A DNA stretch of 64,000 nt. Source: Blastocystis sp. Blastoise. Lineage: Eukaryota; Protista; Bigyra: Opalinata. The notes below the pieces were generated by a model. It saw only the letters and a program-made list of their open reading frames with translations, was not told the DNA's origin and ran no database searches. Numbering within the stretch: position 1 is the stretch's first letter; each line of letters starts with the position of its first letter. The position numbers and the translations under genes are program-made. The stretch is from contig JBBPEB010000002.1 in the NCBI GenBank assembly GCA_039096225.1, positions 1-64,000 on the forward strand. Reading direction: 5' to 3'. Positions 23,020-46,402 of this stretch are shown here, piece after piece.

Positions 23020-23700
23020 TTAAGATGCAGTAAAGTATATATAAAGATTTGTATTCGATAAATCAATTGGATTATTTAATTGATCATATATTTCCCATTG
23101 GATATCTGTATATTTACCATCAATACATGGAATAGATAAATCACTTAAAGCAAATGTATTATCAAATCCTTGTTTAGCATATAAAGGAATAGAAATCAAA
23201 TCATTATCTTTATTAATAATATCACAATACACACGTAACATATAGATCTTATACCATGAAATATTCTTGGATATATAATCATCAGTAAAAACGATAGGTT
23301 GGCTAGTATAATCCCAATAATAGGTTTTAATACCTAACAAATCAAACAATATTTTAGATTCATCTATTCTGTGTTGAGCATATGTTCCAAATGTTTTTGT
23401 TTCTTTATCATAATAATAAGCACAAGTCTTTCCATCTACTAATGATTTCATATTTTTTCCAATTTCAACAATTTTTTCTAAGAATTCTTCCAATGAATAG
23501 TTACCAGCTGGAAATGTATATTTTTGAAATGGGATAGATGCGGTATCATACAAAAGAAATTCAGGAATATTAATGATATCACTTGTATTCACTAATGTAT
23601 TGATATGAGTAATATTTTTACCTACTAAATCCAAAGTATAATTGAATTGTTCATGACAGATTTGACTTGTAATTTTACTTAGATGAGATATTGATGTCAT
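23020..23700 (-). CDS. Minor capsid protein (penton, single jelly-roll)
   Basis: FPAGNYSLEEF, LRVYCDII and C-terminal DIQWEIYDQLNNPIDL match Polinton/PLV penton motifs; lies between ATPase and MCP. Confidence 0.75.
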   Translation of the reverse strand: MTSISHLSKITSQICHEQFNYTLDLVGKNITHINTLVNTSDIINIPEFLLYDTASIPFQKYTFPAGNYSLEEFLEKIVEIGKNMKSLVDGKTCAYYYDKETKTFGTYAQHRIDESKILFDLLGIKTYYWDYTSQPIVFTDDYISKNISWYKIYMLRVYCDIINKDNDLISIPLYAKQGFDNTFALSDLSIPCIDGKYTDIQWEIYDQLNNPIDLSNTNLYIYFTAS

Positions 23701-26781: not shown

Positions 26782-29267
26782 ATGGAACTTGATGATGATA
26801 ATTATGAAGAACAGACTTCATTAGAAGAGAAGGATACTCGTATTAAAACACATGTAGTCCCTATTGATGTTCATTGTATTGATAATCAATTCAATATACA
26901 TTTATCGAATTCTATTGATATCACTAAAAATATCATTTCTTATATTGATCTTAATTTAATTGGTAGTGAAAGTGTGCCTCTATTTGATACATTCACAAAA
27001 ACACAAATATTCAAATATATAAATACTCGTGTTAATGGAAATAATAACAAATTCAAACAATCACTTTAGATCAGAAAAATTATTCAATTCCACAATTATT
27101 AGAACTATGTCATTTTGATATATGTGATAGGCCATTAATAAGTGAATCTCCTGATATCGATTCTACTGTTAAAATTAAGAAAATTCCAACAATTACAATT
27201 AATAGAGATGATTTTTATTGTGAATTTTATATTGCTAAAACAAGACGTGGTTTTAATTTCCCAAAAGGAACTTATACAGATATAGAATTTTGGTGGATCG
27301 CTGTTTGTTTGGTATCTTCTGTATGGTTAGATAACAAAAATCGACTGATGATGAAATATGATGATGATAATATAATATTATATCGACCCAAAACAACTTC
27401 TTTTCCTATTCCTGTTAGAACAACAGGGACTTATTCATTAAAAGAATATGCAAATAATGGTGTATTTAGTAAGTTCATTCATGATATTCCTACACAAAGT
27501 AGTGATGGAACAATTCAATGTGTAATTAATGAAGAACATGATTTTTATTTTCCAAATGTAACTTCTCCAAATATAAATATGATTCTGAAAATGGAAAATA
27601 GTTTATTTACTGGTTTATTTGACGGTAATGGAACACTAATACACACTGGAAATAAACCAGAAATTGTTTTACAAAGAATTAAGAATCCAGTTAAACATGA
27701 TGATATATTTAATATCAAAACATTAATTACTGTTGAAGATGGATATAATACAATGATTGTTCGACAATTGAGTGGTTATGATGGTGTTCATGAAACTACA
27801 TTCACTGTTCCTCCAGGTGACTATATTGAAGACGAATTCTATGATTTATTAGAAAGTTCAATCAATAATACAATTTATACTGATTATTTAAATATATCCA
27901 AAGATGCTCAAACTATGGACGATAAGGATGGATATATTTTATATTTATCATTTCAAGATATTGATTCAACATCATGGACATTTACAGCTATGGATATAGA
28001 GCACTCCTTATTTAAGTATCGTGGTGCTCTACATAATATACGTCCTGATTTAGTTTATGATGAACAAGGATGTTTTGCTTGGCATGTATCTTATGGTAAA
28101 CAATTATTACCAGATACACCTGTTGATTTGAATACATTAGATTTAGATGGTAATTATAAGTGTTATACTGATAGTCATCATATAGATTTCTCTCAAGCTC
28201 AAGAATTAGGTGAAATCTTAGGTTATAATAAATTAGGTCATGATGAAATTGTTAATTATGGTGTTCATAATATTGATAGTAGTCGTCCAAAAGGAATGTT
28301 AATAGCTCAATCGAATATAGTAGATAATAGTCAGAATTCTTTATATTCATTCAATGTGAATAATTATAAAGGCAATAATGAATTTCATGATATTATGAAT
28401 ATTAATGTGTCTCCTTATTTAAATACTATTCAAGATATTATTATACGATATACTGATAAAAATAAACAATATGTGAATTTCAATAATAATTGTATTTTAA
28501 GAGGATTCTTAGAATTCTCAGATACAGTCGATACGATTCAACCTAGTGAAACCATTAAGAAATTATGTTTGAATTGTTTAACAGCAGACACACAATTCTA
28601 TGCTGAATATCCTACATTGAATATCCAGAATAAGATCTTAAAAGATATTATTATTCAGAATGATACTGATACGATCCAAACAAATGCATCTAAATTATGT
28701 ACTGGATATATAAATGGATCTTATTATCCTACATTTAGTTTTCCTTTATCTGATAAATATGTTACATATAGTAATATAAATTCTCCAATCACCATTGATC
28801 ATCATATAGATTTAAGATTTGATGAATTATTCAAAGGAAATATCATTTGTAATATATGTGAACCGAATGGTAGTGATATACGTTTCAAAGCTTATGATGA
28901 AGTATATTGTGATTTTAGTACGAGTAAGAATTTAATTTATGAATTGAAGAAAACCAATGTCTATGGATATCAATATTTAACTAATATACAAATTATATCA
29001 GTGTATGGTCAATCCACTGATTACTTATATCCTATTTCATTAAGATGTTTTACTAATGAATATGAGAATAATATTCATGTTATTGATACTACAAATCTAC
29101 CTTATTACTATTCTAATGGTATTAAATATGAAGGTATATCAAATAAGATCAATAAGAATGTTTATTATTGTAATCGTAAATTATTAAAGTTATTACCTCA
29201 TGATAATATGTTCTTTATTACTTGTGATTATCCTTGTGTTGTTTTATTAACTATCTCTTATATATAA
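26782..29267 (+). CDS. Large penton-like/spike protein (~828 aa if joined), split by a frameshift near 27048-27069
   Basis: The downstream frame is open from 27048 with no ATG until ~27345 and overlaps the end of ORF 26782-27069. Penton-like motifs ITLDQKNYS, FPKGTY, VPPGDY, DIIIRYTDKNKQYVNF. No 3'-end motif between the parts. Confidence 0.6.
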
Positions 29268-29825: not shown

Positions 29826-31622
29826 ATGCAATCAACAGGTTATTCAGATAAAGATTGTGAAGAATTCTTTACAAATTGTATAGATCAATTATTACATTGG
29901 AAGAAAATACAATTATCAACAAGTATAAATTGGAAGAAATGGATAAAGACAATATGTAAGAAATTTCGTAATGAAGAACGAATTCAAATAGATGATATGG
30001 AAGAACCATTCTTTTGTGTAGAAGTGTTAACAGATCCATTTCAATTTCAAAATGTTATGCAACATACACAAACAGAAGCTCCTGGACAACAAGGTAGATT
30101 ATCCAATACTACTGTAGCTAATTATATGCAAATGATTACTTATATAATGAAAAATATATCTATTTGTACAGATGATGAAGATATCATTAATTATAAAGCA
30201 TTTACTCCACAAAATATAAAGAAATGGGAACATTTATGGGGTTCTTTACAAATTGATGCTACTTATTCAAGACATTATGAAATCACTCAGAAAATTATTA
30301 ATTGTGAAGCTGATTGGGGAGAAATCATTAATATCACCAAAAAGAATTATTTAGAGAATCCTAATGATTTATATTATGTGAATAGTTATTTATTAGTTTT
30401 AACTTATGATACATTATGTGCTCGTAATGATTATAATGATTGTGTAATCTATACTCGTGGTCAACAAATTCCTTTATCGTTAAGAAGAACAACCAATTAT
30501 ATTGATTTAAATACTTTGACTATTCATGTGAATGATACAAAGAATCGATTTGAAATTGGTAAGAATGAATATCCTACTTATCAGTATTTATCAGAAGAAT
30601 ATTTAAATGTCTTAGCTAGATCCTTACGTTTATTTCCAAGACATTATTTATTTGTTACTGAGAATGGTGGTAAAGTACGTGATTTGAAATTTGGTGATGA
30701 ATATATAAAACCTCATTTAGGATGGATTTATAAAACACAACAGAATAATTCTTTAATTAATGGTTGTGATATTATAAGACATTTATTTGCTCAATATTAT
30801 TATAGATTATCAAGAGAAGCACAATTCCAACATGATGATTCAGAACATGAATCTAAAGGTGTAGAACTCTTTGAAAATTCTATTATGAAGATGTTACACA
30901 GTCAATCAACACATATGGAAAATTATATATCTCCTTATTTATCTTCTCATTCAACTAAATTGCAAGATTTAGATAATAAAACAAGAACATTTCATATTGA
31001 TATGAATAATATTACTTATACAAGAGAAATTAATCAATTGAATAAATTATTATTTTTATGTAAACGATTTAATGATCGTATAGAACAATATGAAGAAGAC
31101 TATGAAGATGTATTTGGTAAAGAGAATTTCAATATGAAATCAGAATCGATATTATCTACATTAGAACAATATTCATCAGATAATGATACTATAATGATTA
31201 CATTAAGATATTATAAAGATCTATTAAAGCATCATTATCCAGATAAAACAGATTTAGAAAATGAATTACCTGTAGGATGTTCATTAGAATCTGAAGAAGT
31301 CCCAGAGAATTCTAGAGATCGTTATAATCGTTTTATACGTAATAAACAATTATTACCTGATCATTTACATAATAATACAACAGATTCAGAATTAACGAAT
31401 ACTCAAGCATCTCTTATGCAACAGAATACCCAAGATGAAAACTCTACACCTATAGTTATGAATAATTCAGATACTTATGCATTACGTAGTCTTTCTACTA
31501 TGCCTCCTTTAGACCCTATTCATCGGGGTCATGGTTTATTGAAAAAACATAAAGGTAATGCATTCTTTAAAGTCAAAGTCCCTAAAAAACATTTTCATGG
31601 AATTCAATTTAAATTTTATTAA
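29826..31622 (+). CDS. Tyrosine recombinase-family protein, large (598 aa)
   Basis: Catalytic series LCARNDY (R), NDTKN (K), CDIIRHLFA (xxxR), MLHS (H), THMENY (Y), colinear with ORF 40432; long C-terminal extension. Confidence 0.75.
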   Translation: MQSTGYSDKDCEEFFTNCIDQLLHWKKIQLSTSINWKKWIKTICKKFRNEERIQIDDMEEPFFCVEVLTDPFQFQNVMQHTQTEAPGQQGRLSNTTVANYMQMITYIMKNISICTDDEDIINYKAFTPQNIKKWEHLWGSLQIDATYSRHYEITQKIINCEADWGEIINITKKNYLENPNDLYYVNSYLLVLTYDTLCARNDYNDCVIYTRGQQIPLSLRRTTNYIDLNTLTIHVNDTKNRFEIGKNEYPTYQYLSEEYLNVLARSLRLFPRHYLFVTENGGKVRDLKFGDEYIKPHLGWIYKTQQNNSLINGCDIIRHLFAQYYYRLSREAQFQHDDSEHESKGVELFENSIMKMLHSQSTHMENYISPYLSSHSTKLQDLDNKTRTFHIDMNNITYTREINQLNKLLFLCKRFNDRIEQYEEDYEDVFGKENFNMKSESILSTLEQYSSDNDTIMITLRYYKDLLKHHYPDKTDLENELPVGCSLESEEVPENSRDRYNRFIRNKQLLPDHLHNNTTDSELTNTQASLMQQNTQDENSTPIVMNNSDTYALRSLSTMPPLDPIHRGHGLLKKHKGNAFFKVKVPKKHFHGIQFKFY

Positions 31623-31666: not shown

Positions 31667-34600
31667 TTAATTTGGTATAGCATATAAAGTATTATCTATT
31701 AAAATTCGTTTTGTTGATGACGTATTATGATATTGATCTTCACTATAAACAATTTCTTCTTTCTTAGATAAACAATTGGATAAACAGAATAAATCTGTAT
31801 CCACACAATTATTATAAGTATTATCAATCATTAAACCACAAATACCAATAGCATTCCCTCCCTTATAGAAATTTGAAGTATGTTTTCTATGAATATTCAC
31901 AATATCTATAGAATTAAATGTATCTTTACTACTTAAACAACCAAATAAAGCATTTGTAAATTTATCTAAATCTTTCTTAATCGTAAATTGATTATTATTA
32001 TTCACTTTCTTATAACTATTAAAAATATCTTCAATAGTAACTACATTCAAATAATAAGGATCTATAGTAATATGGTTATCAACAAAAGATTTCAAATCAT
32101 ATCCTTCTGTACTACGATCAAAGAATCGTTTCTTACATTCACTTATATGATATTCATTATCTAATTCATGCATATCTAATTGCATACTAGAATAGAAATA
32201 ATTACTTACTAGATAACTAAAGATAATTGAACGATTCTGATAGAATTTATCGGATAGAGTATAATCCATTTCATAATGATTTGGTTTCAATCTCTTTTCT
32301 ACTGTCTGTTTACGTTTCGGTAAATTATGATCTACATAATCTTCATATAAATTAGCATTACCAGGAGGGAAATAACGACAACATGATGGTAAGAAACAAA
32401 CTCTTCTTTCAATAGGACCAGCATTCACAGCAGTAGGTTGGATATTACTTGTCATAAATAAAGTACCCGTGAAATGAACTTTTGTAAATATATTACTGAA
32501 TAATTTACGAGCACTAGCACCTTCTTTCTTTTCTGCTATTTCTTTAAAGACTTTAGAAGAGAATGGATTGAATGTTTTCTTTCTACCAGTAACATCTTCT
32601 TCTATTAATTCATTCATATAATACATAGTCTTATTAGACATATCTACAATCTTAGGAGCTATAGATGTTTCTTCTAAATTATCTGGATTTACTATAATAC
32701 ATTGATTACTACCTACAATACGAGAAATTAAATCAGTTGTTATTGTTTTACCATTACTACCTGTACTACCATATAATATATAAGAAACAGTTTTCTGAGT
32801 ATTGACATAGAAAGCAGTGGTTAGGATACGTAACATAATACTTTCATATTTCTTATCGAATTCACAATATCTTGCATAATGTTGTTCAAATAATTGGATA
32901 ATATCTTTCTGTTCATTATTAATATTCCAACTTACATTAAATTCAGTATCAATTAATAAATCTTCAAATACCATATCTTCTTTATGATATGGTTGGATAT
33001 AATATTGTCTAGGATCTTCTTCTGTAGATTCTTTTGGATATAAATAACCAAGTTGTGTATAGATAACACGTTCTTTATGAACCATATACGTATCTAAATA
33101 TTCTTTATAAGATTTACCATAAGTCTTCAAATAACGATTCAACCATTCTTTATAATGATATTCATTAGTAACAGAAGCAGACATTATTTTATCAACTATT
33201 TTTTGATGTTGTTCATTCTCTTTGGAATATAATCTTGATAGTTTGAATTTCTCTACAATCGATTTCATAAATGTAGTTATTTTGGTTTCAAAGAAATTAA
33301 TATCATAATTATTCTTACAACGTCTTAAGATATTATATTCATCAAATGTATATAAGATAAAATTATCTTTATCTAATATAATAGAAACAATTTCATTAAA
33401 TTCTAATAATTGAAATAACATAACTAATGTTTGTGAATCTACAAGATTAAAGGATTGAATACATTCTAAAATAGACATAAATATGAAATCATTATCATCA
33501 TCTTTATTAAATAATTTATTCTCCATTAATATCTTCAAAATATAATTATTCGATAAATGAGTAGGATCAACTTGTATATGATTCCATGTAGATTCAATTA
33601 CATCATCACTTCGATCATGGCCATAACGTAATGAATAATTTTTAAATAATTCTAATCCTCTTGTTGTATTACAAATCTGTTTTGCTGCACAACATAATTT
33701 ATACCAAGTATTATGAGATTCAAAATAATTCATATCTTCAATAGAACCAATCAATAATAAATATCGTTCTAATAAAGCTTCTTTAGATGCTGTAGTATCC
33801 AATATAGTATCTGTAGAAATCAACATAGGAATATCTTTAATATCTTGTATAGAACATAATATAGTACGTGAACAATTATTTAATCTTTCATAATAACGTT
33901 TATAACGTGAATATTGTTTTAATTTATAAAAGATAATAGGATTAATAATATCACTTATAAGATCATCTTCATTCTTATAATTCAATAATGTTTTGAAATA
34001 ATAATGTTCATTGATTTCGCCTTCTATTTTCTTCCATGATTTATTGGTATATTCTTCATATAATTTATAAGTAGATGGAGAATTATCTTTACTACAACCA
34101 AGAAACATACAACCATTATTCTTTCTGGGTTTACCAATAACATTATAATCAATGAATTCTTTTATATCTAAATTATATGTTTTACATAAATCAACCAATT
34201 TGGTATTCAAAATCATACTATTATATAAGAAAAATAAATAATCACCATTTACAAACCAATTTGTATATATATGAATTCCCCATGAATAATGTATTTCATT
34301 ATGAACTGTCTTCTTATTCACTTCTTTCTTTGTATACACAAGCGAAATAAATTCTTGATTATAATAATGAATACAATGATTACATATTTCTTCAATAAAT
34401 TCATGAATAAAAGAATCTGTTAGAAAAGAAAAATCATTTGATATTTGGTGATAATCTAAATCAAACCATAATCTTCTATAATTAGTTGATGTATTACAAG
34501 GAGTACAATCAATATAATGTAATAATTCTTTTGGATTTTGATAATTAGTAAATAGACTTTTATAAAATGGTAATGGATTTGGTATAATAATTTCACTATG

Positions 34601-34669
34601 ATTATCTTTTGAATTATCATGATTAAAGGAACCAAAAGTATAAACAAAATGAATTTGTGAATTTTCCAT
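31667..34669 (-). CDS. AEP primase - PriCT-2 - D5/SF3 helicase (~1000 aa)
   Basis: AEP motifs LWFDLD, GIHIY, FID. PriCT-2-like NTWYKLCCAAK...LELFKNYS. Walker A YGSTGSNGKT, YYMNEL, LFMTSN, IERRV. First ATG at 34669. Confidence 0.9.
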   Translation of the reverse strand: MENSQIHFVYTFGSFNHDNSKDNHSEIIIPNPLPFYKSLFTNYQNPKELLHYIDCTPCNTSTNYRRLWFDLDYHQISNDFSFLTDSFIHEFIEEICNHCIHYYNQEFISLVYTKKEVNKKTVHNEIHYSWGIHIYTNWFVNGDYLFFLYNSMILNTKLVDLCKTYNLDIKEFIDYNVIGKPRKNNGCMFLGCSKDNSPSTYKLYEEYTNKSWKKIEGEINEHYYFKTLLNYKNEDDLISDIINPIIFYKLKQYSRYKRYYERLNNCSRTILCSIQDIKDIPMLISTDTILDTTASKEALLERYLLLIGSIEDMNYFESHNTWYKLCCAAKQICNTTRGLELFKNYSLRYGHDRSDDVIESTWNHIQVDPTHLSNNYILKILMENKLFNKDDDNDFIFMSILECIQSFNLVDSQTLVMLFQLLEFNEIVSIILDKDNFILYTFDEYNILRRCKNNYDINFFETKITTFMKSIVEKFKLSRLYSKENEQHQKIVDKIMSASVTNEYHYKEWLNRYLKTYGKSYKEYLDTYMVHKERVIYTQLGYLYPKESTEEDPRQYYIQPYHKEDMVFEDLLIDTEFNVSWNINNEQKDIIQLFEQHYARYCEFDKKYESIMLRILTTAFYVNTQKTVSYILYGSTGSNGKTITTDLISRIVGSNQCIIVNPDNLEETSIAPKIVDMSNKTMYYMNELIEEDVTGRKKTFNPFSSKVFKEIAEKKEGASARKLFSNIFTKVHFTGTLFMTSNIQPTAVNAGPIERRVCFLPSCCRYFPPGNANLYEDYVDHNLPKRKQTVEKRLKPNHYEMDYTLSDKFYQNRSIIFSYLVSNYFYSSMQLDMHELDNEYHISECKKRFFDRSTEGYDLKSFVDNHITIDPYYLNVVTIEDIFNSYKKVNNNNQFTIKKDLDKFTNALFGCLSSKDTFNSIDIVNIHRKHTSNFYKGGNAIGICGLMIDNTYNNCVDTDLFCLSNCLSKKEEIVYSEDQYHNTSSTKRILIDNTLYAIPN

Positions 34670-34755: not shown

Positions 34756-34904
34756 GAAGCTTCTAGAACATTCAAGAACCTTCTAGAACCTTCTAGAACA
34801 TTCTATAATAGTAAATATTACTTTATATTTTAAATGTTCTAGAACCTTCTAGAACCTTCTAGAACCTTCTAGAACCTTCTAGAACCTTCTAGAACCTTCT
34901 AGAA
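34756..34904. promoter_or_regulatory. Two long heat-shock-element arrays upstream of the primase-helicase
   Basis: 34756-34803: 10 alternating GAA/TTC pentamers. 34837-34904: TTCT(AGAACCTTCT)6AGAA, 14 perfect pentamers. Confidence 0.7.
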
Positions 34905-35014
34905 CATCCTTTTTATACTTTAGTGTTTTAAATGTATATACAATAAACAAAACAATTTTCAATGATTTTTTACAAGTTTATAAGTAAAAATAGAAAAATA
35001 AACAAGAAAAATAA

Positions 35015-35638
35015 TTAAATTTCAATTGGTTCTTGACTATTAATATATGTACATGAATGAGGCCATCCATTTTTATCATATAAAATACCATCCCAGAAAT
35101 ACATTTGTTTTGAAGGATCTCTTTTAATCTTGTTAATACTCTTAGCATGAACAACTTCATAAGAATAAACTTTACCTTTTTCATCATAAAGAAATCCATC
35201 TTCCATATGGAATTTCATAATATCAAAATCATCATCTTTAGAGTTCGAATGTTCTTTAGAATCTTCAGAACATAAAATAGTAGTTCTATCACTTTCTAAA
35301 AGATCTTCAGTATTGATAATATCTTGAATATCTTGTTCTTCATTAAGTTGTTGAGTATAAATATCAGCAGCGAATTCTTCATAATCTTCAAGACCTTTAA
35401 TAACCGCGTTTATACGTTTTAAAGCTGATCTATAGTTTTCGACTTCGAAAGAAGCAAGACGTTCTTTAGATTTTGCAATACCCAATAGATTCTTTTCTCT
35501 ATTCAATTGAGACTGATGTAAATCAATATCACGAAGAACATTCTTATGAACTTCAACAGCCTTCTTAGAATTCTTAAGAAGTTCCATACGAACAGTTTGA
35601 AGACATTTACGGGAATCAGCAGAAAGATTAAATTGCAT
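35015..35638 (-). CDS. PLV hypothetical coiled-coil protein (~207 aa)
   Basis: ATG at 35638 (MQFNLS...); 4-unit HSE at 35750-35767 upstream; 3' motif at 34946. Confidence 0.7.
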   Translation of the reverse strand: MQFNLSADSRKCLQTVRMELLKNSKKAVEVHKNVLRDIDLHQSQLNREKNLLGIAKSKERLASFEVENYRSALKRINAVIKGLEDYEEFAADIYTQQLNEEQDIQDIINTEDLLESDRTTILCSEDSKEHSNSKDDDFDIMKFHMEDGFLYDEKGKVYSYEVVHAKSINKIKRDPSKQMYFWDGILYDKNGWPHSCTYINSQEPIEI

Positions 35639-36036
35639 TATAATCGCGAATATCGTTACAGAGAGAAAATTTGTATTTATCAAAATGAAATAAATAATAC
35701 ATTTAAATGGAATATTAAATATTCTAGGAGACAGTGTAGAATCTCTATGGAATGTTCTAGAAGGTTCATTTGATTGGCTAATTTTGTCGACTTAGCATTT
35801 AGTATTTGTGTTTCAATGACGAGCATAGTCGGCATCTGTAATCTGATTGGATAAAAAAATTAGTAAAACACAATTAGACGATGACGACGATGTGTCATAC
35901 GAAATAAGTTATTTTATTGGCTTATTTTCCAGCTGGAAGCAATAGGCTTTTGTTAGCAACTGAAATGAAGAACTGTACACTAAAAATAGTATATTTAATA
36001 TATTGTATAAAAATACTTTTGAAGGTTTAAATAATC

Positions 36037-36564
36037 ATGGAAATTCCTGATAGTCTTTCTGCCAGTTTATCCCCTTTCGGTCAAGCCATGATATCCCCCT
36101 TGTTGAATCCATTTGAAAATAGTGTTTCTGCAAATCCTATGGCTTTACCCAATGATAATGATTTCTGTTTTAATTCGCGTGACGAAATCATGTTTGAAGA
36201 TCCACCTCAAGATATTCATCCAATCAATGATGTTTACGTATCTAAAAATCCAGATAGATATCATTCGGTTAACAATCAACCAATACAATTTCAAGATCAA
36301 GTAAATACAAATCCTGATAAGCAAGCATTATTATTTACAAATGAGGAGTTAACAAATATATCCAGTCAATTCGAATCTTTATTTCAAACTATTGAAACAG
36401 CTGATAATATATTAAATGGTATTTATTGTACTGTTGATCATTTAAAAACAAAGATTGAAAGTCAGAAACAAGATTTGAAACAGATTCATGATGATTCTAA
36501 AGAAATTGTTTCATTATTATCCGAATATTCTATTTCTTCTATGTCTGAAATATTTGATCATTAA
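36037..36564 (+). CDS. PLV hypothetical acidic/coiled-coil protein (175 aa)
   Basis: Intact ATG ORF, divergent from 35638 across a promoter with several ATTGG (CCAAT) boxes; 3' motif at 36588. Confidence 0.7.
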   Translation: MEIPDSLSASLSPFGQAMISPLLNPFENSVSANPMALPNDNDFCFNSRDEIMFEDPPQDIHPINDVYVSKNPDRYHSVNNQPIQFQDQVNTNPDKQALLFTNEELTNISSQFESLFQTIETADNILNGIYCTVDHLKTKIESQKQDLKQIHDDSKEIVSLLSEYSISSMSEIFDH

Positions 36565-36654
36565 TTATTTTTATTTAATTAATTATTTTGTTTTGTTTAT
36601 TTTTTTTAAAATTAATTACACAAAGTTTAAATGGAAAATAGAATAGTTTCAAAT

Positions 36655-36764
36655 AGAATTCTTGAATGGTCTAATGGATCTATTAAAGAAATATGTAACC
36701 ACAGTATCATGGTTCGATTCCGTTAAAATGTTTCCATTAGATTATTCAAGTGTTCTTTTTTTTT
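36655..36764 (+). ncRNA. Putative Pol III hairpin RNA (tRNA-type promoter; VA-RNA-like)
   Basis: A box TGGTCTAATGG 36667-36677 and B box GGTTCGATTCC 36711-36721 (44-nt start-to-start, as in tRNA). Stem 36661-36678 pairs with 36733-36750 over 18 bp. T9 terminator at 36756-36764. Confidence 0.65.
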
Positions 36765-36820
36765 CTAGAACCTTCTCGAACCTTCTAGAACCTTCTAGAA
36801 CCTTCTCAAACCTTCTCGAA
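36763..36820. promoter_or_regulatory. HSE array upstream of putative SSB
   Basis: 12 alternating TTC/GAA pentamers (1 mismatch), ~77 bp before ATG 36898. Confidence 0.65.
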
Positions 36821-36897
36821 AATTGATTCATTTGAAAAGAATATCGTAAAATATTAGTATTAAAATACTTATATTTTTACTAAATACTTAACTAAAA

Positions 36898-37491
36898 ATG
36901 TCTACAACTGAATTTAAAAAACCTACTATTCTTGATACTTCGAACTTTAATTTACAATGGGATGACACCAAAGAAAATGCTGTTCTTTTAAATAATAATC
37001 ATCGTGTATGTATTTCTACTGATGCTACACCATGTTTATTTGGTTATATTGTTACACGTGATAAATGGACTTTATTAACAATTGAAGATGATAATCAAGT
37101 ATTCTTAGCTGCTTATAAAGAACTTTATCGTAAATTATGTGAATTATGTCCTGATGGTGATATTGTTAATTTTGTACGTATGGATAATGGTAAATATAAG
37201 ATTACAATTAAAGTACCTATTAATGCATCGAAGAATGTTACTATTGATATTACTGATAAAAGAGATAAGAAGATTAATATCGGTAAAGATCCTAAGTTAA
37301 CTTACGAAGAAATACGTGAAAAGTATATTCCACCAAATACGTTATGTAAAGTATTATTTACAATACATGGTATTCATCGTTATAATAACAAGTATTATAT
37401 TGGTTTATATGCTCGTTCTATTAAAGTCATCGATAAATCTACGAAGAATACTAATAGTAATGATACTATTATTGATTTAACTAATTTATAA
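36898..37491 (+). CDS. Probable single-stranded DNA-binding protein (OB fold, T7 gp2.5/NCLDV-like)
   Basis: 197 aa; C-terminal IPPNTLCKVLFTIHGIHRYNNKYYIGLYARSIKV resembles the closing strands of viral SSBs. Pattern recognition only. Confidence 0.5.
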   Translation: MSTTEFKKPTILDTSNFNLQWDDTKENAVLLNNNHRVCISTDATPCLFGYIVTRDKWTLLTIEDDNQVFLAAYKELYRKLCELCPDGDIVNFVRMDNGKYKITIKVPINASKNVTIDITDKRDKKINIGKDPKLTYEEIREKYIPPNTLCKVLFTIHGIHRYNNKYYIGLYARSIKVIDKSTKNTNSNDTIIDLTNL

Positions 37492-37567
37492 ATTTTTAAT
37501 GTTAAATTTATTTTTTATTAATATATTTGTTTTGTTTATAAATAATTTTATAATTGAAATAAAAAAA

Positions 37568-39295
37568 ATGCAAAGTTGTATATTAGGAATGCCAAGTCCT
37601 GGTACTTTTGGTATGAATTTAATTTCAACTGGAAAAGAATATAGGCGATATAATACACAACCATTACATAAAATGGATCAATATAATCCAATATTTCATG
37701 AAATAGGTCCAAATTCATCTATGCCTGTGTCTACTTTAGAAAGTAAAGAAATACATGATGGTAAAGAAGATGATTATGTAGATCGTTCTAAAACATTTGG
37801 TAAAGATGCTGTTCCACAAGGAAATGGTGCTTTAATTCGTGCTAGAGCAGCAGGTAAAGGTATAATGAAAGCAGCTGGTCCAGAAGAAGATAAAATAGAT
37901 GGTGAAGATCGTCAATATAAAGTATTAAATCCATGTAAACCAAGACGTAAATCTGGTAGAGGAATTATTCCAAATAAATCAGAAATCAATAAATTAGAGA
38001 ATAATCAAGGTTCTGGTATTGGTGATGCAATTAAAAATAAAGTAAAAGATATGTATCAACGAAATGTATTAGATATAAGAGATGCTATTGTAGATAAAAA
38101 AGCTAATAGAAAAGCTCGTGATGCATTAGCTATTTTAGCTCAATATGTTGGTGATGGTCATCATGATCTTGATGATGAATTCAAAAGATTCTATGAACAT
38201 AAAATAAAACGTGGTGGAAAGATTCCTATATCTGTTGCTTCAGCAATTATGAATGCAATTAAAAATAAGAAAATGATTATTAATCCAAAATTAAGAAGAA
38301 TGTTAAGACCCTCTATTATACCAAAATATATAGATTTAGATTCAGCTCAAAGTGGTGATGGTATATTAAGAGTAAAAAGAGGTGGTGGATTCTGGAGCGG
38401 ATTAATGGATTATGCACCAGCTCTATTAGGTGTAGTTGATAAAGGTATGGATTCTTTTGCTAAAGGTAGAAAAGCTTATTATGATACACATTTGGCACAA
38501 CAATCAAGTGAATTAAATGATATGGAATTTGAAATGGAAAAATTAAAACGTCAACAAGCATTAAATGAAATGAAAAAGCAAATAGGTAATGGTATAGTAA
38601 TGGGAACAATTAATGATGGTTACGATACAGTTGAACGACAATCAGAATTATTAGATCAAGAAGTGCAACCATTAAGAGATTTGCACAGTATGAAACAACA
38701 ACTTAGAAAGAATCTTCCTGTTCGTCAACCACCTCCTCCAGCAGCACCCATTCAACCACAACCAGAAATTGAACCTGAATTGAATGTTGATACATTTGAT
38801 ATACCTCAAAATGATACACCAAGACATCCACAAACTCAACAACCTCCTCAACCTTATAAACCCATGTCTCGTGATGAACAAAGTTATCCTTATAAGATTT
38901 ATGGTTTCCCTCAAAATGATAAAGAGAAAGTCGATAGAAAATGGAAAGAAGATGAAAGGGATAAACGAATAGCTGCAAGAAGAGCTAAACGTAGAGGTTA
39001 TGGTGGTCGAGTTAAATTAAGTAAAGCAGAATTCTTAGAACGAATGAGAAGAGGAAAAGAAGCTAAAAAGAAAAGAGGTGGTGATTTGAATCCATTAGTA
39101 TCATTTTATACAGATTTTATAATACCTGCAGGAGTGGCACGAAAAAAACGTAAAATACAAGAGGCTGATTTAAAACAATTACAAATTATAAAACAGAAAA
39201 GAGATAATAATGAAACATTAAATGCAGGTGACGAATTGTTTTGGAAAAAAAAGAAATATATGTTATCAAAAAACTCAGGGGAGGGGATCTGGTAA
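37568..39295 (+). CDS. Basic core polyprotein with about 12 GxG/GG protease-site-like motifs (575 aa)
   Basis: Likely ATG 37568, after the upstream gene's 3' motif. Motifs QGNGA, AGKGI, SGRGI, QGSGI, KRGGK, SGDGI, KRGGG, IGNGI, GYGGR, KRGGD, SGEGI; Lys/Arg rich. Confidence 0.75.
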   Translation: MQSCILGMPSPGTFGMNLISTGKEYRRYNTQPLHKMDQYNPIFHEIGPNSSMPVSTLESKEIHDGKEDDYVDRSKTFGKDAVPQGNGALIRARAAGKGIMKAAGPEEDKIDGEDRQYKVLNPCKPRRKSGRGIIPNKSEINKLENNQGSGIGDAIKNKVKDMYQRNVLDIRDAIVDKKANRKARDALAILAQYVGDGHHDLDDEFKRFYEHKIKRGGKIPISVASAIMNAIKNKKMIINPKLRRMLRPSIIPKYIDLDSAQSGDGILRVKRGGGFWSGLMDYAPALLGVVDKGMDSFAKGRKAYYDTHLAQQSSELNDMEFEMEKLKRQQALNEMKKQIGNGIVMGTINDGYDTVERQSELLDQEVQPLRDLHSMKQQLRKNLPVRQPPPPAAPIQPQPEIEPELNVDTFDIPQNDTPRHPQTQQPPQPYKPMSRDEQSYPYKIYGFPQNDKEKVDRKWKEDERDKRIAARRAKRRGYGGRVKLSKAEFLERMRRGKEAKKKRGGDLNPLVSFYTDFIIPAGVARKKRKIQEADLKQLQIIKQKRDNNETLNAGDELFWKKKKYMLSKNSGEGIW

Positions 39296-39861
39296 AGAGT
39301 AAAGATGAGAAATTAATTCAAAATTCAATGAATTGCGATAATCCTATTATATCTGATAAAACTCGTCATGTTACTCCTAGATCCCCTGATAATTTCAAAC
39401 AAACTCTATCTCAATATTGTAATATACCAAATTCTTTAATATCTCAATTATATAATTATGCTTATTTAAATAAACCTACCTCTTCTGTTGCTTGTGATCG
39501 TGCTGAAAATGTTATGAAACAATTAAATAAAACGAATTCTCAATCTTATAATTATTATAATAGTTATGATGATTTTGAACAAAATATAGATCAAGATCAA
39601 ACTAAATTTAATATGATCTTTCATGAAAGTCCTAGTGATCCTTATAATGGTCATTTTGAAGCTGTTATTTATAATGGTAATAAAAACATAGAACACTATT
39701 CATCATTAGGAAATGAACCTACTTTTTCAAAATCATTTATTCAAAATCATAATATTCAATATAATCCTATTCAACACCAAAAAACTACAAGTAATGCAAA
39801 TGGTTGCTTTTATTATTCTTTACTTTATTTACTTTCTAATGGAAATCTTATGCCTTGTTAA
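39241..39861 (+). CDS. Adenain/Ulp1-like maturation cysteine protease, in -1 frame to the upstream ORF
   Basis: GHFEAV (His), EHYSSLG (cf. YFDSFG), QHQ...NGCFYYSLLYL (Gln, Cys). Overlaps the upstream ORF; first ATG only at 39328. Confidence 0.8.
   Translation: MEKKEIYVIKKLRGGDLVKSKDEKLIQNSMNCDNPIISDKTRHVTPRSPDNFKQTLSQYCNIPNSLISQLYNYAYLNKPTSSVACDRAENVMKQLNKTNSQSYNYYNSYDDFEQNIDQDQTKFNMIFHESPSDPYNGHFEAVIYNGNKNIEHYSSLGNEPTFSKSFIQNHNIQYNPIQHQKTTSNANGCFYYSLLYLLSNGNLMPC
39268..39387 (+). promoter_or_regulatory. Predicted -1 programmed ribosomal frameshift signal
   Basis: In-frame A AAA AAC 39268-39274 and a 7-nt spacer. Stems: 39282-39292/39377-39387 (11 bp), 39297-39302/39371-39376 (6 bp), 39304-39309/39362-39367 (6 bp). 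Confidence 0.75.
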
Positions 39862-39983
39862 AACATTCTAGAACATTCTAGAACATTCATTTTGAACTGG
39901 CTCTATTTGTAGAATCTTTAATTTATTATATTAGTATTTTATATAATTAATTTGTTTTGTTTAATCATTGGTTAATTTAAATA

Positions 39984-40358
39984 ATGAACAAGAAATATCT
40001 TAGTTATTCTTATTTTTGTCGTGTGATGAAGAATCTAAAAGAAGAAGGAATTAAATCCAAAAAGAATGAAATAGCGAATCTATTAGAACAATTTTTAAAT
40101 AATAATAACAACAAGAATCTTAGTGATTTGCAATTGAGTTACTGTAGAAATATGTTACTTTATATAGATGATCCTGTGATTCATCAACGTCTTGAAATGC
40201 TATTGGATAAACAATATATGAAGAATGAGAATCAATATCAAGATGATAAGAATCTTATTCAACCCAATAATATGTTTATGCCAACTATGAAAAGTAATCA
40301 ACAACAAAATCAATATCAAAATAATAATAATAATCTATCTTTCTTACCTTTTAATTAA
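39984..40358 (+). CDS. PLV hypothetical protein (124 aa)
   Basis: Intact ORF; 5-unit HSE at 39866-39888 upstream, 3' motif at 40382. Confidence 0.65.
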   Translation: MNKKYLSYSYFCRVMKNLKEEGIKSKKNEIANLLEQFLNNNNNKNLSDLQLSYCRNMLLYIDDPVIHQRLEMLLDKQYMKNENQYQDDKNLIQPNNMFMPTMKSNQQQNQYQNNNNNLSFLPFN

Positions 40359-40431
40359 TTTTTATATCCTTTTATTACTAGTTGTTTAGTTATATTCAAA
40401 ATTAAAACAAAACAAACATAAAAACATAAAA

Positions 40432-41367
40432 TTATTCAATTAATTTTTTAAATAAATTATTATTTTCTAAAGATACATAAGAATTAATATGTGTATAATC
40501 ATTATGACATAAAGCAGAAGCAGAATTTTCTATATCTTGGAATGTATTGGTTGTAGTTGTAGCATATAATTTTCTTAATGCATTAATGGTCAATTTTGGA
40601 TGGATTTGTTTTAAATGCTTATTCACAAACCAATCAAATGCTTTAGTAGTAAATCCAGTTCTTACAGAAGATTCAAATATAAATTTACGATTTGGATTTC
40701 TTTTTAAGAGTAATTCTAGATCTTCAATCAATTCTTTTGGTGCATCTAATTGAATTGTAGAGTATTTACCAGCAGTTTTATAATCATTTAATAGAATAGA
40801 ACCAGTATGTTTCTCTTTATCATAAACAATATAATTCTTATGAATAGCTGGATCAATAGTATCTTCTGGTGATAGAATGAATAATTGAGCATAATCAGCA
40901 CGAGCAGGAGGAAGATAGGAGTAAAAATCTAATATTAATCGTAATGGATTATAATTTTCTAATTTATCGTGATATTCATGTAAATATGGAGTCGTAATAC
41001 CATCTTTAATAAGATCTTGAATTAAAGTACGTTTCTTATTATCCAGATATTTTTCATACATTGAATTGATAATCACATAAAATTCACACCATTTATTTAA
41101 AATACCTTCTTTATTTAATGAAGAAACATTACGTATAATAAATAATATCAATTCACATAACGATTTCATTGGACTAATTTTGATTTTACGTTCATTTACC
41201 ATATAATCCATGAATGAATAAGGATTCTTCAAGAATTCTGAGAACTTTTTAAATGGTAATGGGAAAATATATAAATTGAAATAATTGGTTAAACGTTTTT
41301 TCCAAATATCAGAATAATTTGAATTCTGTATAACCAAAAGATACTTGTCATAATTTGTATTTTTCAT
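40432..41367 (-). CDS. Tyrosine recombinase/integrase (~311 aa)
   Basis: LPPARADY (R), NDYKTAGKY (K), LTINALRKLYAT (xxLR), LCHN (H), THINSY (Y). First ATG 41367; HSE array 41456-41503 upstream. Confidence 0.85.
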   Translation of the reverse strand: MKNTNYDKYLLVIQNSNYSDIWKKRLTNYFNLYIFPLPFKKFSEFLKNPYSFMDYMVNERKIKISPMKSLCELILFIIRNVSSLNKEGILNKWCEFYVIINSMYEKYLDNKKRTLIQDLIKDGITTPYLHEYHDKLENYNPLRLILDFYSYLPPARADYAQLFILSPEDTIDPAIHKNYIVYDKEKHTGSILLNDYKTAGKYSTIQLDAPKELIEDLELLLKRNPNRKFIFESSVRTGFTTKAFDWFVNKHLKQIHPKLTINALRKLYATTTTNTFQDIENSASALCHNDYTHINSYVSLENNNLFKKLIE

Positions 41368-41465
41368 TGATTTTCTCAAGTAGAATCTCTAAAACTTCTA
41401 TTTTCAAAAGAATAATACATAAGAAAATCAAAATAAAATATCTAAGATTCTCATGTTCTCGAATG

Positions 41466-42223
41466 TTCTAGAAGTTTCGAGAATGTTATAGAATGTTCTC
41501 GAAAATTTATATTTTTCCATAACGGTCGCTCATGTTTCCAAAAGTCTCTCGTTATAATCGTGGTGGTGGGTACATCTTTTTACAAGACCACACCACCACC
41601 AGCTTTTCTTTCACCCACTATAAATACATACCTTGATCACTTTACTCTTTTTATATATATTTTTTTATGATTATCATGACTTTTTATATTATTTATTGAT
41701 CACTATACATACATTTTTATTTTATATATTCCCGTGATTATTTTTATTATTTCTTTTTAGATAGAACCATCCATTTCATCTTTTCTCTATATAAAGGGAG
41801 GGTCGGGGTGTGTGTTTATTTAGCACATTCTGTGCTTCTTTTCGTATTTCTTTCTGTATTCCCGTGATTATTTTACTCACTTTACCAACGATGGAGCCAT
41901 TTCCCATGAATATTCCCTGTAAAGGGGAGGGTTGGACTGTGTATTTTATTTCTTTTATGATTACTATGAGTTTCTCCTTGATCACTTTACGTTTCACGTT
42001 GGAATCGGAACACAAATAAATTAAAAATAAATAAACATGGGGAAAAATAAAAATACACACACACTACCCTACACTCCCATGGTTATTTTACTTCAGAAAT
42101 GTTATTAATTCTTCCGTCGAGAACAAAAAGGGGGGATGACTTCCCCGCTTATGGCTGCGCGCGTCGCGCAGACTCTATGCGGGGTTTGCATACCCCCTTC
42201 TGCAGTTCGAAGAACGGAAGAAT
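41466..42223 (-). repeat. Right terminal inverted repeat (758 bp)
   Basis: Reverse complement of 17088-17845, including the terminal hairpin 42108-42223. Confidence 0.97.
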
Positions 42224-42945
42224 GAATTAAATATAAATAAACGTGATTATTATGAAATAAATATGCGTGCTAGCAGCATATTAATAATTCGTATAAATCG
42301 ATATTAGTTAATTAATTATAAACGATAAATTCTTGTTTTCATTATAAAACGAAAATATTGAATAGGAATTAGAATTATTTCGTAATATTGAGAGTAAACA
42401 TTCTAGCGGCGTGGTTCGCTTGTTAAGCATATTTGAAAATATTTTATTTTGACAATAATTATTTCCAACATAATGAAATAAAACTATTTTGTTATTTTAT
42501 CACACATTTTCGAAAAACAATAGTGATATCGTTAATAATATGGATAATTTATAACGGCATAAATGAATATATATATGATTTTTATATATTAATTTCATGA
42601 ATATCTAATTGTATCTGTGTATAAGTGATATATAGCCATATTAACATATAAATATATTAATTATGCTATTATTATCATTTTAATTGTGAATGGCAATTAA
42701 ATATGGTATATATTAGTATATTATAATGTACTATTAGTGTAAAACAAAAATCTAGTAAACTAATAACATTAGTAATGGAATATATACAAACATATAATTA
42801 GTAAAATATATTAAATAAAATAATATATACGCATATATATAAAGAGACTATATAATTAAAAATAATGAAATATATATATAATATATAAAAATATATAAAA
42901 ATTATATATTAAAATAGTTAATGAAATGATAAAGTAATATTTTTA

Positions 42946-45900
42946 TTACATATAATCATCGTCTAAAACGGCTTTGAATGAAGTGAAGACCGATACATGG
43001 AAAACGTCATTTTGATTGACTTGATCATTTGCCGGAATATATTCATCGTCAGGATTCTAAATATATATATGAATATATTAAAAACAAATATATATACATA
43101 TATATACATTATTATTATTACTGCGGCTTTCTATTTCTTTTGATACGCCAAAGTCGAGAGATATCACGTTATATGGCTTCATCTCGTTAAGTAAACAGTA
43201 TTCATACTCGTCATCCATCAGTGATGCTATACGAGAAGAGGGATTCACGAAATAGCCATATAATCTAGTTTGGCTGAAATTACCTTGTTGGTACTTATGT
43301 ATCTTAAGAACCATCATATCCTCAATTTGTAAGAAAAAAAGAACCTGGCACAATAAAGGACGAATAACGAAGTTACCAGAATCTAACTCAACAACGATAT
43401 TTCGTATCATATACGAATTATTTTTGTATTCAGCATTTGACTTTTCTATATATTCTCTGAATGATATTTCACCGTTAACTACAATTGAGCTGTAGCAGTA
43501 TCGTTTTAATGATCTAAACCCCATTATAAGCCTATGCTGTATATCCACGTTATGATCTATCGCTTCTTTGATAATACTAGTAGGAGTTGACTCATCGAAA
43601 CATGGATAAAATAATTTTGATTTTATACAAGTTGATGAAGAAGAGGATAGGAGGGAGATAATGGATAGGATATCTTTATCGGATAGATCAGGTAATGACC
43701 TTTCCTTAACGCCTTTGAATGAATGTATGCCGGAGTATCCATCGACAGCCATTTCATGATATTGAAGAGACGTATAGCGGTTATCGCTATTGTTCTGATT
43801 GTTCTCAATTTGATTTATTTTAGGAGGGAATATCTGAATGCATTCTCTATCCTGAATTTTTATAATAGCCGATTCATTGAAGTTCGTCGTACCTTTAGTA
43901 ATTCTCTTAATAGTCTTATATGATCGTTCGGCTTCCCATGTTGACGTATAGTATAGCGAACCGCTATTTCGTATACATAAAGCTAAATGCTTTATTGAAT
44001 GCATTTGATTACTTATAAGGACAGCGGGTAATACCGACTCAAGAAGGCAGACAAATAGAATACATCTTTTCTCAAACGCCTCTAGTTCGTTTTTCTGGGT
44101 GATTGGGTTTATCTCCATAGTATCACATATAATTGAACCGAATAATTCAATTACAGAAACAAGTGGAGAGTCAGCACACGTAAAATCCGATGTAAGAAGC
44201 GGAAGAAACCTAGAGAAAAACATAATACGGCTATGAGAAGAAGCAGAAAAGAAATTCATATCATCTAGTATAGTATGTATTTGATAGGTGTCTATGTCAT
44301 ATAACGAGTTTATCTCTTTCATTCTATTTAAAATAATCCTTTTGTTATCGCCAGATAGCGAAATCTTTTTAATTATCTCTGCCTGTTCTGTTTCTGACGC
44401 AATATATACCAAGTTGGAGTATATTTTGGTATTCGGATAATTCCATAATAATTCCATTAGAGACGTAGTAACATTATTTAGTAGATGCATCGGATCAAGT
44501 GAGGTAGACTCATACATATTAAAATATTTAAGTTTCTGAAAACTTAAACTAAGTACTATTGGCGTAATTTCATTTGTAGCATCGGCAGAATCAGCGGTAT
44601 TATCCGTATCAGCGGTATCATCAATATCAACATTATTAGTAGTATCAGCATTATTAGTAGTATCGGCAGTATCGGCAGTATTGGTAGTAGTAGTATTAGT
44701 AGTAGTATTAGTAGTATTAATATTAGTAGTAGTAGTAGTAGTAGTAGTATTTGACCTCAGAGAAGCAGGAGAAGAGTTGATTGCATCTGTGTATATTGAG
44801 CTAGTAGGTATCTCTATAGGTGCAGAAATAGAAACGACTACATTTGAATCAATAATAGATTCATCTATATAGTTTGTAAGCATCCTTGTTGAATTTTCTG
44901 TTTCATTCGGACGATATATAGGAATGAAAAACGTCGTTTTATTATCGTATTCGTCCCGTAACTCGCTAACTTCCGAATAACAGCACTTAATACCATTATG
45001 AAACGTATTATCTCTTTTACGGCATACTGGGACCTCGCAAAAGCGGCATGGATATGTATTAGCGCTTGATGGAGTGTTAACCATTTTTGATACTGCCGGA
45101 TAATCACCATAAACATCGAGAAGAATAGCTATAACTCTCTTATTCTCGTTTGAATCGCCAAATGGGATATCAATACCATTTTGAAGGATTTCGAATTCAG
45201 AACATAGTATATCAATAACAGAAGATACCATTTTAGCAGTAGGGCAGCCATAAAGCCATAAACGGCGATGATCGGTATTCCTTTTCTGAGAATAGTTAAG
45301 CAGCTTCACTGTAATGGGATAACTTGATTTATTTTCGTCTTTCTTAGGTTTATCGAAAACTGAAATACCATCGCTTGTAAGTGAGAAGAAGAGGAAGATA
45401 TCGGCTTTATCATACAATGGGCGTGTATACCTATAAAAGCTAGAACCATAAAAAAACAGCGGGATAGATTCGGTGGATACGGGAAAGTTACTAGGTCGGC
45501 TCATATCGTCACCAATCGGTAAATAATAGCTTTCTTGCTGGTGAAGGCGAAGCATCGACAGTATTTCATCCTTATTATAATAGCATAAGTCTTTAATAGT
45601 ATCTGTATTTAGAAGCAGCTTCTTTATTCGTGGTATTATTGGCAGAATCGTCGTATGATATATATCTATATATAATATATAATATATATAATATATAATA
45701 TATAATAATATATAATATATAATATATAATAATATATAATATAATAATATATAATATATAATATATAATATATAATATAATAATATATAATATATAATAT
45801 ATAATATATAATATATAATATATAATATATAATATATAATATATAATATATAATATATAATATATAATATATAATATATAATATATAATATATAATATAT

Positions 45901-46402
45901 AATATATAATATATAATATATAATATATAATATATAATATATAATATATAATATATAATATATAATATATAATATATAATATATAATATATAATATATAA
46001 TATATAATATATAATATATAATATATAATATATAATAATACATAATATATATACCTTTTACTAGTATATCTGGATCTTGTGGGCATAATATATCTTTTTC
46101 TGGTAAATGATTTCTCGTTAACGTAAAATTTGTTACTTGCTGACACTTAGGGCATATATATAATCGTAATGATTCTGGCAAGAATTTTTGTTTGGAGCGA
46201 AGTCTTCGGATATACGATTGACTATCACAGTTTGTATCGATATATATGTTATTATCAGATTTGACAATATTACAGACAGACATAAAAGATTCTAGTATAT
46301 TGTGAAATTTTTCATAGGGTAATTCTTGTTTTACCCATAACTTATAAGCCTCCATTTCAATTTCGTCTTTTACCGTGTTACAAGTGAAATTTTCGTTTGA
46401 TT
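42946..46402 (-). CDS. CMC (EnSpm/CACTA/Mirage)-type DDE transposase, spliced
   Basis: Motifs LTSDGISVF, SSYPI, GDYPAVSK, YPCRFCE, LDPMHLL, MHSIKHL, GSLYYTSTWEAER. GT-AG intron 46054-45666 joins in frame (LVK/DIYHT). Terminal exon 43056-42946 is open; further 5' exons likely. Confidence 0.8.
45666..46054 (-). repeat. (ATATA)n microsatellite forming a 389-bp intron
   Basis: Near-pure pentamer repeat between GT and AG; explains the YII/YIL runs in the ORF track. Confidence 0.9.

Follow-up and report, generated by a model that had tools for sequence, protein, structure and literature searches.

Polinton-like viruses (PLVs) of protists, such as those of the Tetraselmis S2x group, share a length of 15–30 kb, inverted repeats, a double-jelly-roll capsid protein, an ATPase, a D5-like primase-helicase, a tyrosine recombinase and a presence in many copies (PMC10120064; 10.1101/2025.10.09.676808). 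Mavirus reactivation has been explicitly described as not caused by host stress (10.1101/2025.10.09.676808). The stretch of DNA analysed here, the first 64,000 nt of contig JBBPEB010000002.1 of Blastocystis sp. Blastoise (GenBank assembly GCA_039096225.1; hereafter the window), carries an element that fits an endogenous PLV, differing from other PLVs in its two capsid paralogues, its two recombinase-like genes and the arrays of heat-shock elements (HSEs) before its putative early genes. These arrays probably belong to early promoters driven by the heat-shock factor (HSF) of the host. For endogenous PLVs that have no known helper, the element thereby offers a candidate for the waking signal, along with a host factor and its exact predicted sites, in a protist that can be cultured and that holds about 20 intact copies.

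Mobile elements that exploit the heat-shock response have been described before. In Caenorhabditis, Helitrons carry tandem HSE arrays bound by HSF-1 (PMC6927752), and the same work cites ONSEN of Arabidopsis as a heat-activated transposon with HSEs. Both are transposons with one control region, whereas the element considered here encodes a capsid and has an array in front of each of six distinct genes, an arrangement suggestive of an early regulon. Host HSF also promotes viral expression or latency exit in human cytomegalovirus (HCMV), in Kaposi's sarcoma-associated herpesvirus and Epstein–Barr virus (KSHV/EBV) and in HIV-1, viruses unrelated to this element. In SOS prophage induction, RecA stimulates the cleavage of a phage repressor; the idea shared with the present case is that of a provirus reading a host stress pathway to leave latency, but the parallel is functional only, as here a host activator would bind the viral promoters directly. 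If this is correct, a common gut protist would harbor the eukaryotic equivalent of a prophage induced by stress. Among cellular HSEs, those bound by yeast Hsf1 (PMC6340206), human HSF1/2 (PMC8379338) and PITG_04701 of P. infestans (PMC11267843) have the same alternating units, TTCTAGAA core, free head-to-head spacer and promoter position; the arrays of the window, as predicted HSF sites, differ in having 4–14 units per locus and in lying in a viral genome. The MELD virus of Blastocystis (PMC8502044) is likewise a mid-size linear double-stranded DNA virus found in Blastocystis datasets; it encodes a protein-primed PolB and an adintovirus-like integrase, whereas the open reading frames (ORFs) scanned here include neither a protein-primed PolB nor an rve integrase, the mark of the Maverick/Polinton (adintovirus) type, and hold a primase-helicase and tyrosine recombinases instead. 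The capture of stress elements is already known in transposons, but no report of HSE arrays before the early genes of Polinton-like viruses was found in the literature searched, which omits most subscription journals. For the terms searched, the main texts of two Blastocystis genome papers (PMC10690189, PMC12129017) likewise treat neither endogenous viruses nor heat shock in any passage.

Heat-shock-element arrays and the genes behind them

A preliminary description of this locus listed eight arrays of alternating GAA and TTC units, and a direct motif scan, scoring perfect alternation on a 5-bp register and tallying units and spacers per array, recovers all eight with the same positions and unit counts:

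34756–34803: HSE-type array whose 10 units are all perfect; the ATG of the primase-helicase gene lies 86 nt downstream
34837–34904: HSE-type array of 14 perfect units, a pure 10-bp tandem repeat, at least 167 nt from the primase-helicase ATG
35750–35767: HSE-type array of 4 units, flanked by a half-site on either side; located in a divergent promoter, at a distance of 111 nt to ORF 35638 and 269 nt to ORF 36037
36763–36820: HSE-type array of 12 units with 1 core mismatch, 77 nt upstream of the gene for a likely single-stranded-DNA-binding protein (SSB)
39866–39888: HSE-type array of 5 units, 95 nt upstream of ORF 39984
41456–41503: HSE-type array of 10 units with a single mismatch; the small recombinase gene begins 88 nt downstream, and most of the array is within the right terminal repeat
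17808–17845: HSE-type array of 8 units with a single mismatch, ending 46 nt before the small acidic ORF; it forms the inner end of the left 762-nt inverted repeat, has the same sequence as 41466–41503 and so is not independent
62355–62392: HSE-type array of copy 2, 8 units, all perfect

Eight perfect runs of at least four units are observed where 200 dinucleotide shuffles give an expectation of 0.01 per window, runs of three perfect units being expected 0.75 times per window by chance. All 28 occurrences of the word TTCT[AC]GAA lie in viral DNA, with none in the 36.4 kb of host DNA of the window. The preliminary description had assigned most of the variation to the nn positions, and this holds for the outer GAAnnTTC spacers, which vary freely and come in five kinds that differ between loci, but not for the inner TTCnnGAA spacers, which are TA in 21 of 29 cases (TC in 6, AA in 1, GA in 1). 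The base preceding GAA is A in 50 of 58 units. With the left-end duplicate excluded, 187 of 189 core positions are conserved, a figure that is partly circular because the arrays are defined by their cores; in the only comparison free of this circularity, the left arrays of copies 1 and 2 differ by two spacer changes and one core change in 38 nt, too few for a test. HSEs have been defined by at least three alternating nGAAn units, a pyrimidine-purine TTCnnGAA spacer and a free GAAnnTTC spacer (PMC8379338); the inverted units, 4 to 14 in number, and both spacers of the arrays follow this definition.

An array of this kind could also be a neutral 10-bp minisatellite, spread by slippage and inter-locus recombination and bound by no factor. 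The array at 34837–34904, as a pure tandem, likely expanded via slippage, the SSB array (36763–36820) is built from the same 10-bp unit, and the left array of copy 1 seems to be a duplicate of the right-end one; furthermore, about 760 metagenome stretches contain seven-unit arrays, of which the 120 examined lie in mixed contexts. The outer spacers, however, differ by locus while the cores stay fixed, and every array precedes an ATG, the three convergent gaps of the element and the host DNA of the window being free of them. Eight-unit arrays are also rare, occurring in 4 stretches (2 distinct loci) among the 2.9 million viral contigs of IMG/VR, in which six-unit arrays were found in 27 stretches and five-unit A-biased arrays in 46 rows. 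A neutral origin of the arrays as a whole hence appears highly improbable.

The genes of the element can be divided by these arrays. Perfect three-unit sites are present within 300 nt upstream of 7 of the 20 ORFs. Six of them, encoding the primase-helicase, the SSB, the small recombinase and three products without known family, have an array 46–111 nt before the ATG, in agreement with the promoter position of HSEs although measured from the ATG and not from the transcription start; the seventh (ORF 36037) is reached through the shared divergent promoter. No three-unit site, even allowing one mismatch, lies in the 300 nt upstream of the other 13 ORFs, a set that takes in the two capsid genes, the ATPase and the putative penton, so that the earlier observation of no arrays before capsid, penton or ATPase genes is confirmed. 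The element and its main features are as follows:

17084–42227: whole endogenous Polinton-like virus, copy 1, 25.1 kb, an intron-free ORF block
17084–17845, + strand: left terminal inverted repeat, its inner end being the left array
17892–18059, + strand: 55-aa acidic ORF, array-bearing, no family match
21912–22949, − strand: P-loop ATPase, likely for genome packaging, no array
23020–23700, − strand: 226-aa ORF, putative penton (a label from the preliminary description), no array
23800–25017, − strand: major capsid protein, double jelly roll, 405 aa, no array
25195–26688, − strand: second capsid paralogue, 497 aa, no array
29826–31622, + strand: large tyrosine-recombinase-like ORF, 598 aa, catalytic-type motifs by eye, no array
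31667–34669, − strand: archaeo-eukaryotic primase (AEP)–superfamily 3 (SF3) helicase, D5-like, 1000 aa
35015–35638, − strand: 207-aa ORF, array-bearing, no family match
36037–36564, + strand: 175-aa ORF sharing the divergent promoter
36898–37491, + strand: likely SSB of giant-virus type, 197 aa, array-bearing
39328–39861, + strand: likely maturation cysteine protease, motifs by eye, no array
39984–40358, + strand: 124-aa ORF with a Q/N-rich tail, array-bearing
40432–41367, − strand: small tyrosine recombinase of Polinton-like-virus type, 311 aa, array-bearing

All six array-bearing loci (6/6) fall within 40–140 nt of an ATG, a range picked after the fact that covers 30% of the intergenic DNA (crude p 0.0008–0.0025). 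In copy 1, each terminal repeat ends in an array facing the first inward gene; the array of the divergent promoter is flanked by CCAAT boxes near 35777 and 35850, and that at 39866–39888 is placed before the 3′-end motif of the protease gene. The capsid block shows short AT-rich gaps and no arrays. The arrays separate likely early from likely late genes, and provide a functional handle on four genes without known role.

A probable role for host heat-shock factor, similar arrays and a possible viral binder

Several lines of evidence connect the arrays to HSF. Their preferred core, TTCTAGAA, equals the consensus of yeast Hsf1, given from chromatin immunoprecipitation as TTCTAGAAnnTTCTAGAA (PMC6340206), and the site of an oomycete HSF, PITG_04701 of P. 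infestans, which binds TTCTAGAA and does so better with three units than with two or one (PMC11267843). The preliminary description had allowed that the host might lack HSF; at the level of domains it does not, since Table S5 of a comparative study lists two to three HSF DNA-binding domains in each of eight Blastocystis genomes (PMC12129017). For Proteromonas, a four-letter HSF motif gave no match within the 4.0 million characters of supplementary text covered. The consensus match, the promoter distance and the host domains together give good support to the reading of the arrays as HSF-family sites in early-gene promoters.

Similar arrays are also seen in other eukaryotic viruses. In CRESS viruses, which have circular, single-stranded DNA and encode Rep, the motif lies 99–135 nt upstream of Rep (L171/L190, at 4978–5000 of L171; L186, twice, at 1484–1511 and 4545–4567; L191, at 998–1025), several of these arrays having a TATA-like box between array and gene, and in L020 (315–342) it precedes Cap, together with a TATA-like box. 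Of the other CRESS arrays, one was seen by eye within an origin-like hairpin (L029), and another overlaps the end of Rep (L159). In an unrelated 22-kb PLV (L009, on the same contig as L156 and L194), a six-unit array at 6001–6028 adjoins a TATA-like box and a small basic ORF at one end and, at its other end, stands 88 nt upstream of an ORF that comes before the recombinase; giant-virus contigs (L165/L189 and L188) are also among the array carriers of IMG/VR. The presence of one motif before unrelated replication proteins in eukaryotic viruses points to a host factor. As several CRESS viruses of no close relation have it before Rep and another PLV carries it too, HSF capture may be a recurrent, overlooked strategy of small eukaryotic DNA viruses. 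Separately, a 16-unit array (L001, 10001–10078, the same locus as L003 and L004) lies about 4 kb from a Rep-like fragment in 19%-GC DNA that is filed as viral and is likely eukaryotic host DNA.

Other observations weigh against host HSF as the factor behind the arrays. The contrast between gene classes, in which 3 of 4 replication or recombination genes but none of the 10 virion-type genes carry arrays (post hoc Fisher test, p 0.011), speaks for HSF but is confounded by the physical clustering of the array genes at 34.7–41.5 kb. The preliminary claim that arrays mark replication and recombinase genes, which stands for the primase-helicase, the SSB and the small recombinase, fails for the large tyrosine-recombinase-like gene (29826–31622). 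Many matches of the same scans are phages or mobile elements, their arrays lying inside replication-initiator genes (the L006 group, including L008, L012 and L027; L019; L024), 68–71 nt before terminase-small-subunit-like genes (L017, L018, L022) and 2–3 nt before a small conserved gene in ten contigs (L155, L160, L162, L164 and kin), and HSF is hence not needed for such arrays to arise. Furthermore, among the seven recombinase-bearing PLV loci retrieved, all six (6/6) other than L009, which had been selected for its array, have no intergenic array, a single three-unit site being found inside a gene; arrays are therefore not a general PLV trait. Lastly, ungapped sites are the targets of most oomycete HSFs that have been tested, and zoospores are the main stage at which the TTCTAGAA binder is expressed (PMC11267843).

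The phage arrays bring in an alternative in which a virus-encoded protein, be it the C-terminal domain of the helicase or the product of a small ORF, binds the arrays as an iteron-like origin or as autoregulatory operators. The iteron role that the preliminary description had named as an alternative is real insofar as alternating arrays do sit inside phage replication-initiator genes, and the hairpin array of L029 has the look of an origin. D5/P4-type helicases possess an origin-binding winged helix, and the C-terminal domain of the primase-helicase, which is conserved in the alignment and finds no Pfam match even at a loose cut-off, may be such a winged helix; the longest arrays adjoin this gene, and one array lies in each terminal repeat. 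Conversely, the arrays are distributed over six separate loci at promoter distance and do not form the single repeat cluster of one iteron origin. Inner TA spacers make up 0 of 10 in phage initiators and 4 of 23 in other phages, against the 21 of 29 of this element and 18 of 29 in eukaryotic viruses, these groups being hand-picked representatives drawn partly from an A-biased scan. The terminal repeats also contain direct repeats of other kinds and GC-rich stretches resembling hairpins, which could themselves be used as sites by an origin or recombinase. In copy 2, the left array is shifted inward by 137 bp, outside the part matching the terminal repeat of copy 1, and Pfam scans scored no viral protein to an HSF or helix-turn-helix (HTH) family. 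Recognition of the arrays by a viral protein is accordingly judged decidedly unlikely.

A possible early switch and its trigger

With host HSF as the array-binding factor, a simple sequence of events can be proposed. HSF trimers would load cooperatively on the 4–14-unit arrays and start transcription; the small recombinase would excise the provirus, and the primase-helicase and SSB would replicate its DNA with host polymerases; an array-driven viral protein, or some other factor, would then turn on the capsid block, which has no arrays and hence needs a trigger of its own. Speculative candidates for this late switch are the array-driven 55-, 124-, 175- and 207-aa proteins, the 124-aa product in particular as a late-gene activator. 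A reading of the 175-aa coiled-coil ORF as an HSBP1-like damper found no Pfam support and was dropped, and Blastocystis has no HSBP1 in Table S5 of PMC12129017. The initial trigger would be whatever activates the HSF involved, with heat or proteotoxic stress as the most likely single trigger. Stress-induced excision and replication via HSF, as put forward in the preliminary description, is possible and is proposed here tentatively. The complete scheme is a shade more doubtful; in it, a helper-independent PLV would have its latency exit wired to the host heat-shock regulon, with HSF firing six early promoters whose products excise the provirus and activate the capsid block.

Part of the likelihood given to host-HSF promoters belongs to a version in which HSF is not a stress alarm, but a constitutive or life-stage (e.g., cyst-stage) activator of the early genes, one that the virus would exploit for strong early expression once it has entered a new cell. 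Yeast Hsf1 drives basal transcription of some 18–20 genes (PMC6340206), and all of the P. infestans HSF genes profiled (10/10) are up in a life stage or growth condition (PMC11267843). Binding by HSF would therefore not amount to proof of induction by stress, oomycete HSFs being often stage-regulated and yeast Hsf1 serving basal targets as well. The large recombinase gene has no array, and the CRESS viruses carry arrays before Rep with no integration function seen in those loci. On the other hand, high-quality multi-unit HSEs track occupancy better during heat shock than before it (PMC6340206), and about 20 intact proviruses that are always active would be costly unless silenced. Constitutive or stage-bound activation by HSF seems somewhat unlikely.

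A different trigger would be a helper giant virus waking the provirus, as for mavirus and the Tetraselmis PLVs, with the HSF sites at most priming the early genes while co-infection stresses the host. The PLV and virophage reactivation described to date needs a giant virus (10.1101/2025.10.09.676808), and several features of the element agree with this, namely a capsid whose best fold match is a virophage (Sputnik), an SSB that resembles giant-virus proteins and a late block with short, AT-rich, array-free gaps. The element nonetheless contains host-type nuclear signals, in the form of HSEs, CCAAT boxes and a Blastocystis-like 3′-end motif after 17 of 19 genes, and a gut giant-virus survey reports no gene-flux link to Blastocystis (10.1101/2024.03.23.586382). 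Control by a helper virus is thus considered very improbable, and release through host HSF remains the preferred reading.

Gene content, copies and surroundings of the element

Of the features used to recognize PLVs (PMC10120064), a double-jelly-roll capsid, a primase-helicase (the alternative being pPolB), a tyrosine recombinase (the alternative being an rve integrase) and a 15–30 kb insertion with terminal inverted repeats are found in the element, while the FtsK/A32-type packaging ATPase and the penton are represented by candidate ORFs. The AlphaFold model of the capsid (pLDDT 72, from a 35-sequence alignment) has the Sputnik capsid as its best Foldseek match (E 1.6e-11) and also matches the PBCV-1 and PRD1 capsids; the protein has 87 homologues, and the 497-aa paralogue aligns to its profile with an hhalign probability of 100 (E 6e-40). 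The P-loop ORF read as the ATPase matches the PHROG head-and-packaging category (E 1e-10) and, weakly, Pfam FtsK (E 0.049), while the 226-aa putative penton has no family match in the Pfam or PHROG scans. The primase-helicase matches a PHROG primase (E 6e-9) and, by profile, D5/PriCT-2 proteins, a sequence search of the PDB with the primase profile returning chance P-loop matches only. For the small recombinase, the Pfam match to Phage_integrase is weak (E 0.084) and tblastn matches to PLV recombinases range from E 7e-10 to 7e-4; the large recombinase-like ORF has no Pfam or PHROG match, also at a loose Pfam cut-off, and the two show no pairwise similarity (E 0.054). The SSB candidate scores 0.94–0.95 to giant-virus clusters of the ESM Atlas, with DUF5871/DUF2738 on 10–18% of their members; DUF2738 presumably has a single-stranded-DNA-binding role, which links the product of 36898–37491 to SSB. 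No family match was obtained for the protease ORF (39328–39861) in Pfam, PHROG or loose Pfam scans, the loose scan yielded nothing useful for the 55-aa acidic ORF either, and for the 124-aa ORF there was no usable ESM Atlas match and no homologue scored. At 26782–27347, coding-like DNA continues for 278 nt beyond a 95-aa ORF, and the gene looks broken in this copy, by mutation or assembly error. In the ORF at 37499–39295, the first 23 annotated codons hold the 3′-end motif of the SSB gene, so that its true start is likely 37568; its product has many GxG-type motifs, in the manner of protease-cleaved core proteins.

The inverted arms of copy 1 (17084–17845 and 41466–42227) are 762 nt long and 100% identical. 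The left end of a second copy occupies 61497–64000 (+ strand), with a terminal repeat identical at 697 of 709 nt, an array and the acidic ORF; between its terminal repeat and array it has 137 extra bp, with a CCAAT box, that are absent in copy 1 (62208–62354 vs. 17797–17808). This suggests that the left end of copy 1 may have been overwritten from its own right end by recombination inside the arrays. About 20 near-identical copies are present in a Blastocystis genome, two genes having 19–21 cluster members, and the primase is 99% identical to Blastocystis proteins named by NCBI, which makes the host a Blastocystis, one whose low GC fits the reptile-associated clade; the 98.5–99.2% identity of the 15 primase copies compared, in about 20 intact copies, points to recent activity. 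Relatives in metagenome assemblies show 42–45% identity in the primase and 55–62% in the capsid, and since those with such capsids are common in public assemblies, the proposed switch, if true, could matter for how Blastocystis in general releases viruses and changes its genome. The lineage is isolated, with 13 primase profile matches among 1.84 billion representatives. Searches for related loci returned none for the primase-helicase in viral or metagenome contigs and, in viral contigs, none for the capsid; when 17 element proteins were compared by tblastn with a set of array loci, the recombinase of one PLV was the sole match. More distant virus families (P0007, P0064, P0065 and P0180–P0182) reside in the same Blastocystis genome, with 39% identity in the primase and 47–50% in the capsid.

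The terminal repeat (17084–17800) shows a GC-rich hairpin-like stretch near its outer end and direct repeats of about 15–18 nt in two to three copies, which are candidate origin or recombinase sites; no target-site duplication is evident at the element junctions. A TGTTT(T/A)GTT or TGTTTGTT motif lies 14–92 nt downstream of 17 of 19 viral genes (18058–41367), for instance at 18085/18087, 36588 and 40382/40415, and on both strands in two convergent gaps, with 15–16 matches in the element vs. 3–5 in host DNA. A role of TGTTTTGTT as a late promoter was considered and dropped, because these two convergent gaps contain it on both strands and because, after ORFs 35638 and 36037, it stands well away from the next ATG; it is better read as a 3′-end signal. 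We take the motif to resemble the downstream gene element of Blastocystis. This element is enriched in the genomes of human-isolate, not tortoise-isolate, Blastocystis (PMC12129017), and the virus may keep the 3′-end signal of another Blastocystis lineage.

No hsp gene was noticed by eye in the window. An intron-rich host gene lies upstream of the insertion (3500–15000), with what by eye we take to be a BEACH-like domain. Less than 1 kb from the right end of the virus, at 43078–46355, stands a transposase-like ORF with a long 7-bp repeat, which has no Pfam match and whose motifs are presumably of CMC/EnSpm type.

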